DNA of 64,000 bases from an uncultured Alphaproteobacteria bacterium (GTDB taxonomy: Bacteria > Pseudomonadota > Alphaproteobacteria > RF32 > CAG-239), in the NCBI GenBank assembly GCA_944392275.1, contig CALXWA010000002.1, positions 60,664-124,663 of the forward strand, read 5' to 3'. Made by a program: the position numbers and the translations under genes. Every line of letters starts with the position of its first letter. Within the stretch, counting starts at the first letter, position 1. The notes under the pieces were generated by a model that searched no databases, was not told the origin of the DNA, and saw nothing but the letters and a program-made list of their open reading frames with translations. Shown in pieces: positions 2,688 through 8,374 of this stretch.

Positions 2688-3797
2688 ATGGATGTTATTC
2701 AATTAGCTCAAGAATTAATGAAATTTCGGACCGAAACGGGAAATCAGGCAGAAATCCAAAAATGTATGGAATATATAAAATCTTTGTTCCAAACAACAAA
2801 GGTTAAAATAGATATTTTTCAAAAAGATAATTTGGCTCCGGTTCTTTTTATAAGAAACTGTAATGAGGCTGTTTTTGATGTATTGGTTCTTGGGCATTTG
2901 GATGTTGTTCCGGCTAAAGATGAAATGTTTCACCCCTTTATTCAAGATGGAAAATTGTATGGTCGCGGCTCTTTAGATATGAAATCTTTTGCAGCCGTTG
3001 CCTTAAACTCAATGGAATATGTTTTACAACATTCTTTGCCCATCAAATTCGGAATTATTCTTTCTTCTGATGAAGAAAAAGGCAGTAAAGGAACAGAGGC
3101 TTTTTTGAACGCTAACCCGAATATTTTTGCCAATATTGTTTTGGATAATGATGTGGGAGGAGATATTACCAAAATTGTTACCAAATGCAAAAATCCGGTT
3201 TTTGTAAAAATTATGGCTCATGGCAAAGAAGCCCACGGATCTACCCCTTGGGATGGAATAGATGCCAATGAATTACTTATGAAAACACTGCAAAATATCC
3301 GCAAAGACTATCCCTATTATTCCTTAAACGGAAATATACCCGAGGACAAATGGATTGACACTGTCCATTTTGCAAAAATCTGCGGCGGCGATGTTTCTAA
3401 CATTATTGCAAATTATGCCGAGGCTTTGTGCGATTTTCGGCTTGTTGAAACTTCTTCAACCGCCGATTTAAGAAAAAATCTGGACCGTTGCATGGAAGAC
3501 GGCGTATCTTACCAAATTGTTTCGGAATCGACACCAGTCGTTATGGATGAACAAAATCCGCATATTTTGGCTTATAAAAAATTTGCCGAAGATATTTTGG
3601 GACAATCTTTAGATTTTGAACATATCGGCGGAGCAACCGATTCTCGCGAATTTGCCGTTAAAGGATCTACCGTTATTATGCATTCCGGAAGCGGTGAAGG
3701 AATGCATGCAAACGGCGAATATGTTGAAGTCGATAGTGTTAAAAAAATTGCCGAAATCCAAATCCGTTTTCTGGAAAAAATGGCTCTTGCAAAATAA
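2688..3797 (+). CDS. M20/ArgE/DapE family metallopeptidase
   Basis: GHLDVVP, LYGRGSLDMK, SDEE, AHGS and C-terminal His motifs. Confidence 0.9.
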   Translation: MDVIQLAQELMKFRTETGNQAEIQKCMEYIKSLFQTTKVKIDIFQKDNLAPVLFIRNCNEAVFDVLVLGHLDVVPAKDEMFHPFIQDGKLYGRGSLDMKSFAAVALNSMEYVLQHSLPIKFGIILSSDEEKGSKGTEAFLNANPNIFANIVLDNDVGGDITKIVTKCKNPVFVKIMAHGKEAHGSTPWDGIDANELLMKTLQNIRKDYPYYSLNGNIPEDKWIDTVHFAKICGGDVSNIIANYAEALCDFRLVETSSTADLRKNLDRCMEDGVSYQIVSESTPVVMDEQNPHILAYKKFAEDILGQSLDFEHIGGATDSREFAVKGSTVIMHSGSGEGMHANGEYVEVDSVKKIAEIQIRFLEKMALAK

Positions 3798-3825: not shown

Positions 3826-3902
3826 GCCGGCGTAGCTCATCAGGATAGAGCAACAGTTTCCTAAACTGTGGGTAGTGGGTTCGAGTCCCGCCGCTGGCGC
3901 CA
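3826..3902 (+). tRNA. tRNA-Arg(CCT)
   Basis: Cloverleaf; anticodon arm ACAGT-TTCCTAA-ACTGT; GGTTCGAGTCC T-arm; CCA end. Confidence 0.95.
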
Positions 3903-3910
3903 TTTTTTTC

Positions 3911-3938
3911 TTGACTCCATACCCACATGGGGTATACT
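3911..3938 (+). promoter_or_regulatory. Sigma70 promoter overlapped by a CsoR/RcnR-type operator
   Basis: TTGACT (3911-3916), 16-nt spacer, TATACT (3933-3938); inverted repeat ATACCC-acatg-GGGTAT (3919-3935) with a G tract, the layout of known CsoR operators. Confidence 0.8.
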
Positions 3939-3965
3939 GATAGTGAAATTATAAAGGAGGAAAAA

Positions 3966-4106
3966 ATGGCTTGTAATAATCCAAAATGTAAAAATCCTAA
4001 TTGCACTTGTGGAGATAACTGCAAATGTGATGAAAATCATCAATGTTCTGAAAATTGCAATTGCGATGGTGATAACAAAAAATGTTCTTGTGAAAAGAGC
4101 AAATAA
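3966..4106 (+). CDS. Metallothionein-like Cys-rich small protein (46 aa, not in the ORF track)
   Basis: AAAGGAGG RBS; translates as MACNNPKCKNPNCTCGDNCKCDENHQCSENCNCDGDNKKCSCEKSK (11 Cys, four CxC, one His, no aromatic residues); lies directly upstream of csoR. Confidence 0.85.
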   Translation: MACNNPKCKNPNCTCGDNCKCDENHQCSENCNCDGDNKKCSCEKSK

Positions 4107-4154
4107 TTTTAAGGAGGGGATTTTCCCCTCTTTGTCTTTGATTAAGGTTTGTAG

Positions 4155-4451
4155 ATGGATAAAAAAAATTGTTGCGTATCATCCGAACATCCGTCTCATG
4201 AGGCGGAGCTTGTACGGGTTAATCGTATTCTCGGCCAAGTGGCGGGGATAAAAAAAATGGTTGAAGAGCATCGTTATTGTATGGATATTATTTCCCAAAT
4301 TCGAGCGGCTCGTTCTGCCCTAAAATCTGTTGAAAGAAATATTCTTAAAACTCATTTGCAAAATTGTGTTGTTCAATCCTTTTGTTCTGAGACGGAACGC
4401 GAAAATAAGATTAAGGAACTGACACAATTATTTGAGCATTTTGATGATTAA
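4155..4451 (+). CDS. csoR: CsoR/RcnR family metal-sensing repressor
   Basis: RVNRILGQVAGI, RYCMDI and KTHLQNC give the Cys/His-x3-Cys ligand set; N-terminal CC..HPSH. Confidence 0.85.
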   Translation: MDKKNCCVSSEHPSHEAELVRVNRILGQVAGIKKMVEEHRYCMDIISQIRAARSALKSVERNILKTHLQNCVVQSFCSETERENKIKELTQLFEHFDD

Positions 4452-4519
4452 ATTTTGCTAAATAAGTTAAAATATTTGTTGCAAAATTTAAATTGTTGCG
4501 GTAGGTTGTGTCTGTCTTT

Positions 4520-4610
4520 GGATAGATGGCCGAGTGGTCGAAGGCGCACGATTGGAAATCGTGTATACCTCCAAAGGGTATCCAGGGTTCGAATCCCTGT
4601 CTATCCGCCA
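4520..4610 (+). tRNA. tRNA-Ser(GGA)
   Basis: Anticodon arm CACGA-TTGGAAA-TCGTG, long variable arm, GGTTCGAATCC, CCA end. Confidence 0.95.
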
Positions 4611-4615
4611 TTTAC

Positions 4616-4650
4616 AAAACCCCTGTTGTGGCAGGGGTTTTTGTTTTTTT
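4616..4650. terminator. Intrinsic terminator after tRNA-Ser
   Basis: AAAACCCCTG-ttgtgg-CAGGGGTTTT followed by a T run. Confidence 0.8.
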
Positions 4651-5241: not shown

Positions 5242-6432
5242 ATGGAAAAATTTAACGCTTTTATTCTTACTCATAAAAAATATTTGATCTATTTTCTTTT
5301 GGCCTTTGCCGGATGCTGCCTGTTTTTTATTTTTCATAGCAACGAAAATGATATTACTTACATTACGGAACCGGTACAAAAAAGAAATGTGCAAAAAGTT
5401 GTTAATGCAACGGGCGAAGTTCGGGCGATTGAGCTGGTAACGGTTGGTGCTCAGGTATCCGGGAAAATTGAAAAACTTTATGTTTCTATCGGGCAAGATG
5501 TCAAAAAAGGTGATTTGATTGCTGAGATTGATTCTACAACGCAGCAAAATGACGTTGATATCAATAAAGCCAAACTGGAAAGTTATCAGGCTCAGCTCAA
5601 TGCGGCTAAAATCTCTTTGAAAGTTGCTGAAAAACAATATAAACGAATCCAAACCTTAAAAAAACGCAATGCCGCTTCCGATGAGGATTTGGAAAATGCC
5701 GAAGATACTTATGAAACCGCTAAATCTAAGGTGACAGAATTGGAATCTTCCCTTAAAGAAACCCAAATTTCTTTAAGTACGGCTGAGACAAACCTTGGCT
5801 ACACTAAAATTACCGCTCCTTTAGACGGAACGGTTGTTTCGGTTCCGGTTAAGGTCGGGCAAACCATTAATGCGGCTATGGATACGCCGACAATTATTCA
5901 ATTGGCGGATTTAAGCCAAATGGAAATTTTGATTGAAATCTCTGAAGGGGATATCGGGAATATTAAGCCCGGCGTTAAAGTTACTTATTCGATTTTGGCT
6001 GATTTAAATAAAACTTATGAGACAACGCTCCAATCTATTGACCCGGGGCTCACTTTATTGACCAACAACGAATACACCGAAGTGGTTGAATCCAGTGAGG
6101 CAATCTATTATTACGGACGCTTGATTGTGCCAAATGAGGAAAGAAAACTCCGTATCGGAATGACAACACAAAACGTGATTTATGTTGAAAGTGCCGAAAA
6201 CGTTTTGACCGTTCCGGTTACGGCCGTTAAAGGAAATACTGACAATAAATATGTTGAAATCTTGACTAAAGACGGAATCTCACAACGCAAAATCACAACC
6301 GGGGTTTCGGATGGCTTAAATGTTGAAGTAAAAAGCGGTGTTAACGAAGGCGATGATGTGATTATTGCCCATATGTCTTCGGCCGAAATTTCCGATAAAG
6401 CTTCTAATGCCCGCGGAGCAAGGAGATTTTAA
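5242..6432 (+). CDS. macA: MacA-type efflux periplasmic adaptor
   Basis: N-terminal TM anchor, VGAQVSGKI and ITAPLDGTVV lipoyl halves, coiled coil; upstream of macB. Confidence 0.85.
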   Translation: MEKFNAFILTHKKYLIYFLLAFAGCCLFFIFHSNENDITYITEPVQKRNVQKVVNATGEVRAIELVTVGAQVSGKIEKLYVSIGQDVKKGDLIAEIDSTTQQNDVDINKAKLESYQAQLNAAKISLKVAEKQYKRIQTLKKRNAASDEDLENAEDTYETAKSKVTELESSLKETQISLSTAETNLGYTKITAPLDGTVVSVPVKVGQTINAAMDTPTIIQLADLSQMEILIEISEGDIGNIKPGVKVTYSILADLNKTYETTLQSIDPGLTLLTNNEYTEVVESSEAIYYYGRLIVPNEERKLRIGMTTQNVIYVESAENVLTVPVTAVKGNTDNKYVEILTKDGISQRKITTGVSDGLNVEVKSGVNEGDDVIIAHMSSAEISDKASNARGARRF

Positions 6433-6433
6433 C

Positions 6434-8374
6434 ATGAATATTATTGAACTAAAAAATATTCATAAATTCTTTGGGCAGGAAAAAAATCGGGTTCATGTTT
6501 TAAAAGGCATTAACTTAAGTATTGAGAAAGGTGATTTTGTTGCCATTATCGGACAGTCCGGTTCCGGAAAATCGACTTTAATGAATATTATCGGTTGTTT
6601 GGATGTTCCGACCTCCGGTTCTTATAAAATTAACGGAACCGAAGTTGGAAAAATGGAAAAAGATCAGTTGGCCGAACTCCGCTGCAAAACCTTTGGTTTT
6701 ATTTTTCAACGTTATAACCTGCTCAGTAGTCTAAAAGCCACTGAAAATGCAGCTTTGCCGGCGGTTTATCTTGGCCTTGGACCGGAAGAACGGAATCAAC
6801 GCTCGATTGAACTGTTAAAACAACTTGATTTAGGCGGAAAATTAAATAATTACCCCAATGAGCTTTCCGGCGGACAACAGCAACGTGTCAGTATTGCCAG
6901 AGCCTTAATGAACGGCGGAGAAATTATTTTGGCCGATGAACCGACCGGAGCCCTTGATTCCAAAAGTGGGGAAATGGTTATGGAAATTATTAAAAATTTG
7001 CATACCCAAGGACACACCATTATTTTAGTTACGCACGACAGCAAGATTGCCGCTCAAGCCAGTCGTATTATTGAAATTAAAGATGGGGAAATCGTTGCCG
7101 ATGAACGAAAGGCTTCGGACTTTTATGAACTGAAAAATAAGATTAAAGATGTTCAAAGAAGCAAGGTAGATGCCTTTAAGTATAGTTTTGCCGAATCTTT
7201 TCGGATGTCTATTCATGCTATTTTGGCTAATAAAATGCGTTCCCTCCTTACCATGCTCGGTATTATTATCGGTATTGCGTCCGTTGTTTCGGTCGTTGCT
7301 TTGGGAAATGCTTCGCAGGCAAAAATTATGGCCCAGATTAATGCCATGGGGACCAATACGATTGATATTATGCCCGGCACCGGATTTGGAGACATGCGGT
7401 CGGGAAAAGTTAAAACTCTGAAGGTTGGAGATTCGGATTATTTAAGCAAGCAAAGCTTTATTGATAACTCTACCCCAAGTGTTTCGGCAAGCGGAACCTT
7501 GGTTTACGGAAACTATTCTTTAACCGCCTCTTTGAAAGGGGTCGGCTCCTCCTTTTTTGAAGTTAAGGGAAGAAAAATTGCTCAAGGACGAATCTTTACT
7601 CAAGACGAAGTTAACAACATCGCCTCAGTTGTGGTGATTGACGATAACACTCTTAACGAAATGTTTTCAAATAACCCTAACCCCATCGGTGAAATTATTA
7701 TCTTTAACAAAAAGCCGTTAAAAATCATCGGCGTTACCGAAAAAGACAGTAATCCGGGACCAGGCTCTGATTCAATGAACATTTGGACACCTTATACGAC
7801 AGCGATGTATAAAATTAACGGAAGCACCGATATTAATTCCATTACCGTTAAAATCTCCGATACGGTCAATTCTCAGGTTGCTGAAGAGAGTATTGAGAAT
7901 ATTTTAACCTCTCTCCACGGAAAAAAAGATTTTTTTATGATTAACAGCGACAGTATTAAGCAAACGGTTGAAAGTGCTACGAATACCATGAAACTTCTCA
8001 TTGCGAGTATTGCCGTTATTTCTTTGATTGTCGGAGGTATCGGGGTTATGAACATTATGTTGGTTTCTGTTACCGAACGGACAAAAGAAATTGGTATCCG
8101 AATGGCTATCGGGGCAAAGCAAGCCGATATTTTGCAACAGTTTTTGATTGAAGCTATTTTGATTTGTTTGGTCGGCGGCTTTATGGGGGTTGCTTTGTCC
8201 ATGATTATCGGCTTTTGCTTTAATACTTTTTCGGAAGATTTCGGAATGATTTTCTCCACCGCTTCCATTGTTTTGGCTTTGGTCTGCTCTACGGCTATTG
8301 GTATCGTTTTTGGGTACATGCCGGCCAAGAATGCCTCCAACCTCAATCCTATTGATGCTTTAGCGAGTGAATAA
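6434..8374 (+). CDS. macB: MacB-type ABC ATPase/permease
   Basis: GQSGSGKST, LSGGQQQRV, ILADEPTGALD, then FtsX-like permease (RSLLTMLGIIIG, ERTKEIGIRMAIGA); start set at ATG 6434 after AGGAG. Confidence 0.92.
   Translation: MNIIELKNIHKFFGQEKNRVHVLKGINLSIEKGDFVAIIGQSGSGKSTLMNIIGCLDVPTSGSYKINGTEVGKMEKDQLAELRCKTFGFIFQRYNLLSSLKATENAALPAVYLGLGPEERNQRSIELLKQLDLGGKLNNYPNELSGGQQQRVSIARALMNGGEIILADEPTGALDSKSGEMVMEIIKNLHTQGHTIILVTHDSKIAAQASRIIEIKDGEIVADERKASDFYELKNKIKDVQRSKVDAFKYSFAESFRMSIHAILANKMRSLLTMLGIIIGIASVVSVVALGNASQAKIMAQINAMGTNTIDIMPGTGFGDMRSGKVKTLKVGDSDYLSKQSFIDNSTPSVSASGTLVYGNYSLTASLKGVGSSFFEVKGRKIAQGRIFTQDEVNNIASVVVIDDNTLNEMFSNNPNPIGEIIIFNKKPLKIIGVTEKDSNPGPGSDSMNIWTPYTTAMYKINGSTDINSITVKISDTVNSQVAEESIENILTSLHGKKDFFMINSDSIKQTVESATNTMKLLIASIAVISLIVGGIGVMNIMLVSVTERTKEIGIRMAIGAKQADILQQFLIEAILICLVGGFMGVALSMIIGFCFNTFSEDFGMIFSTASIVLALVCSTAIGIVFGYMPAKNASNLNPIDALASE

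Follow-up and report, generated by a model that had tools for sequence, protein, structure and literature searches.

A metallothionein-like peptide gene followed by csoR: a candidate copper-buffering module in uncultured gut bacteria

Among described bacterial systems, the one closest to the locus presented here is that of MymT, a 4.9-kDa peptide encoded by a non-annotated open reading frame (ORF) and binding up to six Cu(I) ions (PMC7558416). MymT is controlled by RicR, and the ricR site is printed as TACCCCGCTGGGTA (PMC3944814). For CsoR itself, the literature on its operators gives a type-2 consensus, ATATACCCCTNAGGGGTATAT, a TAC-X9-GTA rule, and an RLXR motif on helix alpha-1 of the protein (PMC3902906). 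The accessible parts of two overviews name only SmtA/BmtA and MymT as bacterial metallothionein families, and only MymT, CutC, CopZ and Csp as options for cytosolic Cu(I) sequestration (PMC7558416; PMC11672702), Csp and MymT both being listed among the known options in the second of them (PMC11672702). In this article, we describe a gene for a small Cys-rich, metallothionein-like peptide that is followed by csoR in 64,000 nucleotides of contig CALXWA010000002.1 (GCA_944392275.1) from an uncultured Alphaproteobacteria bacterium (RF32; CAG-239). This whole stretch is referred to as the window, and positions are counted within it.

We consider it likely that the locus encodes a Cu(I)-derepressed metallothionein in a two-gene copper-buffering operon, which would share the logic of RicR and MymT while belonging to a new sequence family. 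This reading builds on a gene that is under selection at the protein level, the family to which it belongs, the place and conservation of the operator, the family assignment and ligand set of the CsoR, and the lack of CopA. The features of the module, in order, are the following.

3911-3938, + strand: sigma-70-type promoter, matching the consensus at 10 of 12 positions
3911-3916, + strand: -35 element TTGACT, read from the sequence
3917-3932, + strand: promoter spacer of 16 nucleotides, read from the sequence
3919-3935, no strand assigned: predicted CsoR operator ATACCCACATGGGGTAT, read from the sequence as ATACCC-ACATG-GGGTAT
3933-3938, + strand: -10 element TATACT, read from the sequence
3953-3960, + strand: Shine-Dalgarno sequence AAAGGAGG, 5 nucleotides ahead of the ATG
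3966-4106 including the stop codon, + strand: gene for the metallothionein-like peptide, 46 amino acids with 11 Cys, recognised by its ORF and by family conservation
4110-4134, + strand: terminator-like hairpin separating the peptide gene from csoR, with 11 pairs (-15.6 kcal/mol) and a weak T tail
4155-4451, + strand: csoR, 98 amino acids, recognised by its match to PF02583

A preliminary description of the window had reported a Cys-rich ORF of 46 codons missed by the ORF track, a strong ribosome-binding site, an operator-like ATACCC-N5-GGGTAT in the promoter spacer and a CsoR/RcnR repressor as the next gene, and each of these is found as described, with the addition that the palindrome also overlaps the -10 element.

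The peptide, which runs from ATG to TAA and reads MACNNPKCKNPNCTCGDNCKCDENHQCSENCNCDGDNKKCSCEKSK, has 11 Cys among its 46 residues (24%), one His and no Phe, Tyr or Trp, and contains four CxC motifs (CTC, CKC, CNC and CSC). It is thus small, Cys-rich with CxC motifs and without aromatic residues, which are the generic sequence criteria for metallothioneins. Its exact sequence is absent from a collection of 15 billion proteins and was therefore not called by any pipeline. A lone ORF of 46 codons means little; what makes this one significant is where it lies and how it is conserved. When 41 related genomes were searched in six frames, 12 loci were found, all 12 of which hold a Cys-rich ORF with a common N-terminal core. 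Relatives were also found in a collection of 5.8 billion protein clusters (10 from the single sequence and 60 from the family profile), in a HMMER search of 1.84 billion representatives (15 matches at E<=0.001) and in a scan with one genome per species (99 relatives, of which 80 were kept as the set of public loci, 446,151 nucleotides in total).

Conservation of the frame and of the Cys pattern, which had been proposed as a check, is evident in the core: nine residues (C3, N5, P6, C8, C13, C15, G16, C19 and C21) are invariant across 38 diverse members. The 19-codon core occurs in 71 distinct DNA versions over 92 loci; all of these loci were retrieved via the core motif or a protein match, and the presence of the core in them is thus given by construction. 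Summed over the 71 versions, the entropy is 6.26 at the first codon position, 6.08 at the second and 23.66 at the third. Both TGT and TGC are used in every invariant Cys column, and several synonymous codons also appear in the invariant Asn, Pro and Gly columns. This pattern of third-position variation indicates selection on the peptide as a protein. The C-terminal half is plastic, with members ranging from 33 to 64 amino acids and from 7 to 17 Cys. An AlphaFold2 model built from a 19-row alignment has no secondary structure and no confident fold (predicted local distance difference test score 61.8, predicted template-modelling score 0.33), as one would expect if the peptide takes up its fold together with metal.

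One could suppose that the ORF is a chance occurrence in a tRNA spacer and not a gene, with the adjacent CsoR merely regulating itself. The ORF is indeed short, was not called by pipelines in the host genome and has no RNA contig cover, and one exact operator per genome equals the chance expectation. Opposed to this are the core shared by 92 loci, in which variation clearly favours third codon positions, the strong Shine-Dalgarno sequence, the retention of the ORF between operator and csoR in relatives from two phyla, and the 60 predicted proteins that match the family profile. We regard this explanation as very improbable and as already contradicted by the conservation data, and by the same comparative evidence the ORF at 3966-4106 is a real, selected gene. 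A longer version of it, starting from an ATG at 3927 (59 amino acids), was considered and rejected: that ATG lies inside the operator, upstream of the -10 element and without a Shine-Dalgarno sequence, and the homologues start at the MAC/MSKC position.

The peptide of the window has no Pfam or NCBIfam match at E<=10, and a search of the PDB with the family profile gave nothing at E<=10, the SmtA structure included. When the 38 members were compared with Pfam, only sub-threshold matches to eukaryotic metallothioneins appeared, namely PF02067 in 16 of the 38 (best E 0.0086), with other weak matches to PF05522 in three and to PF12809, PF00131 and PF01439 in one each, and PF02069 (BmtA/SmtA) matched none of the 38 at E<=10. 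Matches of the 38 to NCBIfam were at chance level only (hexapeptide-repeat acyltransferases and two other models), with no metallothionein among them. The preliminary description had judged the peptide to be unlike BmtA and nearer to eukaryotic metallothioneins, which agrees with these counts, and the comparison with the Pfam metallothionein models that it had suggested gave no significant match, so the peptide belongs to no described Pfam or NCBIfam family. Its neighbours in a language-model atlas, which serve as a lead only, are two unnamed clusters followed in third place by the PF02067 cluster at 0.85. Two of the 60 relatives carry a name in their source, in both cases "hypothetical protein". 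Judged by its sequence, the peptide falls under the operational definition of a metallothionein and appears to lie outside the described families.

The palindrome takes up the promoter spacer and reaches into the -10 element, of which it covers the first three bases. Its inner part follows the TAC-X9-GTA rule, with TAC-CCACATGGG-GTA at 3920-3934 and C/G tracts, and by sequence the site fits the promoter-overlapping type-2 consensus of CsoR (PMC3902906). It also resembles the RicR site TACCCCGCTGGGTA (PMC3944814). The layout TTGACA - operator - TATA is repeated in relatives, where GGAG-type sites precede the ATG of the peptide gene. The exact form TACCC-N5-GGGTA occurs once in the 1.56-Mb genome against 0.72 expected; a single exact site is not significant alone, and it is the comparative data that give it significance. 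Allowing one mismatch at most, the 80 public loci contain 67 sites, of which 66 fall within 150 nucleotides upstream of the peptide gene, which answers the question of operator linkage raised in the preliminary description. Seven loci linked to csoR have no site at this threshold and carry a more degenerate one at the equivalent place in the promoter, which in six of the seven reads TACAT-N5-GGGTA (two mismatches).

The sole exception among the 67 sites lies in the variable arm of a tRNA-Ser in one related locus (L021), which contains an exact TACCC-N5-GGGTA. In the window, the variable arm of tRNA-Ser(GGA) likewise holds a sequence one mismatch away from the operator, ATACCTCCAAAGGGTAT at 4565-4581, 110 nucleotides downstream of csoR. 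The operator likeness of the tRNA-Ser arm is probably a coincidence.

The product of csoR scores 87.7 bits with PF02583, for which the cut-off is 22.8 (E 6.9e-25). Among NCBIfam models, that of the copper sensor RicR (NF052430) ranks first with 68.1 bits, followed by RcnR with 46 and FrmR with 38, and the cut-off of 175 for RicR orthologues is not reached. The protein has the ligand set Y41-C42-H67-C71, that is, the x-C-H-C fingerprint with a Tyr before the first Cys, the His 25 residues after this Cys and the second Cys 4 residues further on, and an R-x-x-R motif, R21-V-N-R24, in helix 1. Y-C-H-C is present in 54 of 54 CsoRs linked to the peptide (53 loci and the window), and the linked CsoRs share a conserved His about 27 residues ahead of the ligand Cys. 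We take the Y-C-H-C spacing to be the Cu(I) site of CsoR, with residue roles as in the CsoR of M. tuberculosis, and by its ligand set the CsoR of the window appears to be a copper-type sensor. The host genome contains a second CsoR-family gene with the fingerprint x-C-H-H (G000:C4:157757-158002; L094 1492-1770, minus strand), situated upstream of an adjoining CDF transporter gene (L094 828-1481). Its promoter has TATA-GGG-TATA-GGGG-TATA between the -35 element and the start, unlike the operator of the window. By sequence this pair looks like the Ni/Co pair RcnR/DmeR-DmeF, for which "type 1" site and "DmeRF" are presumably the appropriate labels, and the paralogue with its own CDF and site would constitute a separate regulon.

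In the mechanism that we infer, the inducer is Cu(I). As long as copper is absent, apo-CsoR (tetrameric in this family) would sit on ATACCC-N5-GGGTAT and block RNA polymerase, because the site fills the spacer between the -35 and -10 elements and overlaps the latter. Binding of Cu(I) at Cys42, His67 and Cys71 would lower the affinity of CsoR for DNA, the promoter would fire, and the 46-residue peptide would be made from its strong ribosome site. Its 11 thiolates would then hold several Cu(I) ions in a thiolate cluster in the fashion of metallothioneins. The hairpin at 4110-4134 is possibly a partial terminator, and no promoter-like site is present in the gap between it and csoR; some transcripts would pass this weak hairpin into csoR, so that the two genes would be co-transcribed and the repressor autoregulated.

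The copper machinery of the host bears on what the sensor could control. The assembly is rated 100% complete and has no match to PF00122, and hence no P-type ATPase, with a control that was positive in 14 of 14 genomes. It also has no HMA domain over the cut-off and no CutC, DUF326/Csp, heme-copper oxidase (COX1, Cu-oxidase_3) or multicopper-oxidase domain. The remark in the preliminary description that the locus lacks an efflux ATPase was therefore an understatement, as none exists in the whole genome and none of the Cu type exceeds the cut-off in 56 genomes of the genus. A P-type ATPase is present in 32 of these 56, and the Cu-type model (TIGR01511, cut-off 397 bits) reaches its cut-off in none. 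The same was found in ten further genomes with the peptide-csoR pairing (five Gastranaerophilales and five alphaproteobacterial metagenome-assembled genomes, MAGs), none of which reaches the Cu-ATPase cut-off; six of the ten have an ATPase near it (374-390 bits) and a seventh only a weak match of 86 bits. Six ATPases of the genus were inspected. One is of the Ca type, and the other five, of about 610-620 residues, score 510-528 bits with the Cd/Zn model versus 367-390 with the Cu model and carry CPC, N-x7-K and D-x-G-x7-N, without MxxSS and YN, a pattern that we take to be a Zn/Cd-type signature. No CsoR-type site was found within 6-6.5 kb around six of the ATPase genes of the genus. Within the genus, possession of the peptide gene and lack of a P-type ATPase do not go together in any simple way, with some genomes having the peptide and no ATPase (G005, G008, G010, G021) and others having both (G006, G020, G024). 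Since neither a P-type ATPase nor any other copper protein can be recognised in the host, sequestration by the peptide is apparently its only regulated copper response, and the peptide appears to be the only output of the CsoR sensor.

The distribution of the family in the 80 public loci is as follows.

Alpha/proteobacterial MAGs: 59 loci; csoR in 41 (35 within 120 nucleotides, 6 at 800-1700 nucleotides); exact site in 29 of 59, at most one mismatch in 37 of 59, tandem pair in 15
Gastranaerophilales: 12 loci; csoR in 12 (all within 120 nucleotides, 0 at 800-1700 nucleotides); exact site in 10 of 12, at most one mismatch in 12 of 12, tandem pair in 2
Tsukamurella: 8 loci; csoR in 0; exact site 0, at most one mismatch 0, tandem pair 0
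Bacteroidetes MAG: 1 locus; csoR in 0; exact site 0, at most one mismatch 0, tandem pair 0

The preliminary description had placed the family in an alphaproteobacterium, and this held for the Alphaproteobacteria themselves; a confinement to them did not hold, as members also occur in Gastranaerophilales, Tsukamurella and one Bacteroidetes MAG. The linkage to csoR for which it had called is present, csoR being located just downstream of the peptide gene in 53 of the 80 loci (and in 6 of 12 loci of the genus sample), and it is not universal, 18 of the 59 alpha/proteobacterial loci being without it. In one locus (L067, 3023-4024), a CDF transporter (PF01545 and ZT_dimer) lies between the peptide gene and csoR, as identified with Pfam in this locus, the only one of its kind scanned. 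Three others (L085, L086 and L088) have an equal gap of about 900 nucleotides at this place. The CsoR of the variant with the interposed CDF still has Y-C-H-C, and it is unusual for a copper-type sensor to control a CDF. Three genus loci (L008, L010 and L011) are also listed as having the order peptide-CDF-csoR, with Pfam confirmation of the CDF only in L067.

Several of these results weigh against the proposal of a copper-responsive operon. The peptide family is not tied to CsoR: the retrieved locus DNA contains no csoR in the 18 alpha/proteobacterial loci just mentioned, 15 of which are also without the operator (in one of the 15, L058, the DNA ends 18 nucleotides past the gene), and csoR was likewise not found in the retrieved DNA of any of the eight Tsukamurella loci or of the Bacteroidetes locus. 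The hairpin between the two genes is weak when compared with shuffled sequences (z-score only -1.3). Several P1B ATPases of relatives score 363-390 bits, just below the Cu cut-off of 397, and their assignment to the Zn/Cd type is based on a higher TIGR01512 score and on sequence motifs. An unrecognised copper exporter may also exist. The CDF found in the operon of L067 belongs to a family of divalent-cation transporters. Three RNA runs have no contig over the peptide ORF, though one of them (X1) covers csoR. A C-H-C ligand set, moreover, is by analogy no proof that copper is the metal of this CsoR, InrS being described as sensing nickel despite CsoR-like metal sites (PMC3320959).

The example of InrS leads to a second explanation, in which the architecture is the same and the signal is another one (Ni, Co, Zn, Cd or reactive sulfur), the peptide then buffering Zn/Cd or thiol stress. 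This would be in keeping with the operon in which a CDF separates the peptide gene from csoR (confirmed in L067, with the equal gap in L085, L086 and L088), given that members of the CDF family usually move divalent cations. The conserved His that precedes the ligand Cys by about 27 residues could serve as a fourth ligand, and the host lacks the Zn/Cd P1B-2 ATPase that is present in at least 23 genomes of the genus. On the other hand, all 54 linked CsoRs have Y-C-H-C with a Tyr beside the Cys, as in Cu(I) CsoRs, the operator is a two-tract type-2 CsoR site, and NCBIfam ranks RicR above RcnR and FrmR. The separate x-C-H-H paralogue with its CDF and a different site fits the Ni/Co role, and the persulfide-sensing CstR is not known to have the His, which counts against reactive sulfur. 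We therefore judge a signal other than copper to be unlikely, albeit worth keeping in mind.

It is also conceivable that the peptide is regulated by CsoR without being a storage sponge, acting as a Cu(I) chaperone to an unknown exporter, as a redox or thiol buffer, or as the precursor of a modified peptide. CopZ, normal in CsoR operons, is missing here, as no HMA domain exceeds the cut-off; some relatives have a CDF in the operon, and the C-terminal half differs greatly between members, both in length and in Cys content (7-17 Cys). Such roles are quite improbable in view of the Cys content of the peptide (11 of 46 residues, with CxC repeated), far in excess of what a chaperone needs, the absence of an exporter or modifying enzyme from the window locus (the neighbours being an M20 peptidase, tRNAs and DMT_6), and the fact that the weak profile matches are only to metallothioneins. 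Sequestration of Cu(I) under control of CsoR is the reading that we retain.

Fourteen sequencing runs were listed for the window, none with half of the sampled words, and four were examined as contigs; their cover falls mostly on the two tRNAs and comes from other organisms. The RNA run X1 yielded two short contigs on csoR (4163-4313 and 4358-4531), for which DNA carry-over is possible, and a contig from X11, a run of unspecified kind, spans 4038-4274.

The genes around the module are unrelated to metals: upstream lies one for an M20 peptidase, and downstream follow those for a DMT_6 membrane protein and a MacAB-like pump. As the preliminary description had it, the module lies between two tRNAs, and the flanking features are:

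3826-3902, + strand: tRNA-Arg (CCT), found by ARAGORN, the upstream boundary of the module
4520-4610, + strand: tRNA-Ser (GGA), found by ARAGORN, the downstream boundary of the module
4616-4641, + strand: terminator-like hairpin with a T tail, 3' of tRNA-Ser

Just past the DMT_6 gene, at 5242-8374, overlapping ORFs encode a membrane-fusion protein resembling MacA and an ABC transporter of the MacB type, which have no evident link to the peptide and csoR. The locus L021, in which the peptide gene is likewise preceded by tRNA-Arg, matches the synteny of the window (M20 peptidase, tRNA-Arg, peptide gene, tRNA-Ser, DMT_6) and has neither csoR nor the promoter-operator block between its two tRNAs; the regulatory pair was therefore gained or lost at a fixed site. 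In its segment 2884-3565, L021 also contains a second copy of the tRNA-Ser 3' end and terminator at about 3503-3565.

Some members deviate from the common arrangement. In L083, the csoR adjacent to the peptide gene (3254-3537) gives two partial matches that do not share a reading frame (identity 45% and 58%), which may reflect a frameshift or a pseudogene. The protein P0071 (109 residues), from an ENA contig of 2147 nucleotides, joins the N-terminal half of the peptide, without a change of frame, to an entire CsoR body (PF02583), which is either a natural fusion linking both functions or a deletion or assembly artefact. The eight Tsukamurella species (L052, L055, L060, L061, L073, L076, L084 and L092) have a peptide of 33-34 residues with the core GCSNPNCTCENCSCGD[NS]CTCG. 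In L052, the only Tsukamurella locus scanned, the gene is directly 3' of a gene for a pyridine-nucleotide-disulphide oxidoreductase, and most of the eight loci have a -10-like hexamer, TACAGT or TAGAGT, 7 nucleotides ahead of the ATG, which suggests a leaderless mRNA. Two long proteins, P0013 (645 residues) and P0016 (232 residues), contain 11 and 3 matched stretches of the Cys motif, respectively, at about 50 residues per repeat (...NPCGNPSCKCPTCECGTGCTCG...), and the repeats are fused to a C-terminal ThiF/MoeB-like stretch (VVGAGGLG), giving a fusion of metallothionein repeats with an E1-like part; both proteins look eukaryotic. In P0020 (180 residues) an N-terminal CSNPxCxNPxCRCGxxCRC is followed by a DUF1259 domain (so named by JGI), and P0022 (111 residues) has the same motif with a different tail.

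The family core can be written as C-x-N-P-x-C-x-(NP/CE)-x-C-x-C-G-D/E-N-C-x-C. A more far-reaching proposal is that it marks a third, as yet unnamed, family of bacterial metallothioneins, distributed over gut Alphaproteobacteria, Gastranaerophilales, Tsukamurella and further lineages, which is the sole CsoR output in gut bacteria with small genomes where CopA, CopZ and all recognisable cuproenzymes were lost or never present, with copper tolerance achieved by sequestration alone. We hold this proposal tentatively, its chances falling somewhat short of even. If true, it would contradict the textbook view of regulated efflux by P1B-1 ATPases as the universal core of bacterial copper defence. The new elements are 1) the peptide family, 2) its union with csoR in an operon in two gut phyla and 3) what is apparently the sole copper-responsive output in the absence of CopA, the logic of repressor and metallothionein being already known from RicR and MymT. 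In the literature we found no description of the peptide family or of a CsoR-regulated metallothionein outside mycobacteria, and further families may be described in subscription journals. Pfam and NCBIfam do not detect the family and, where its members are called, they are unnamed or "hypothetical". The conserved CsoR operator together with csoR constitutes a built-in functional hint in two phyla of uncultured gut bacteria. The CopA-free host lineage offers a natural test of copper management by a sensor and a sponge only, and it bears on how gut commensals handle dietary and host-imposed copper. In practical terms, the work would provide a profile for annotating such small genes and a compact cassette of Cu-responsive promoter, repressor and binder.

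How does this locus compare with known systems? The eukaryotic metallothioneins (PF02067, family 5, Diptera) are similar to the peptide in size, Cys density, runs of CxC and CxCGxxCxC and lack of aromatics, but all matches to them are below significance and give no evidence of common descent; they probably reflect composition. The proteins Csp1 and Csp3 (DUF326) are, by analogy, comparable to the role proposed here, namely cytosolic Cu(I) sequestration by many Cys thiolates, but they are pre-folded four-helix bundles of more than 100 residues, whereas the peptide of the window has 46 residues and no predicted helices. SmtA/BmtA under SmtB share with it the principle that a repressor which senses metal controls a small, Cys-rich peptide which binds it, and the N-terminal CxCxxCxC of one subtype (KCKCENCQC) recalls SmtA when compared by eye. 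In contrast to SmtA/BmtA, the peptide has no aromatics or zinc-finger core and its regulator belongs to the CsoR family and not to ArsR/SmtB, and SmtA is a Zn/Cd protein, unlike the proposed Cu(I) role here.

The CsoR-copZA operons of B. subtilis, S. lividans and Listeria have the same repressor family with C-H-C ligands and a type-2 TAC-X9-GTA operator that overlaps the promoter (PMC3902906). They differ in the regulated genes, which in the window are replaced by a single gene for a metallothionein-like peptide, neither CopZ nor CopA being present in the host genome. The closest likeness is to RicR and MymT, where a CsoR-family repressor, a TACCC...GGGTA promoter palindrome and a small, originally unannotated Cys-rich peptide recur. 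The motif C-x-N-P-x-C...C-x-C-G-D-N-C-x-C appears to be unlike MymT, and none of the 15 matches from the 1.84 billion representatives appears to resemble MymT. In M. tuberculosis, five loci are under the control of RicR, and Cu ATPases are present as well. The CsoR of the window is no RicR orthologue (68 bits against 175), and its gene and that of the peptide it is proposed to control appear to be united in one operon.

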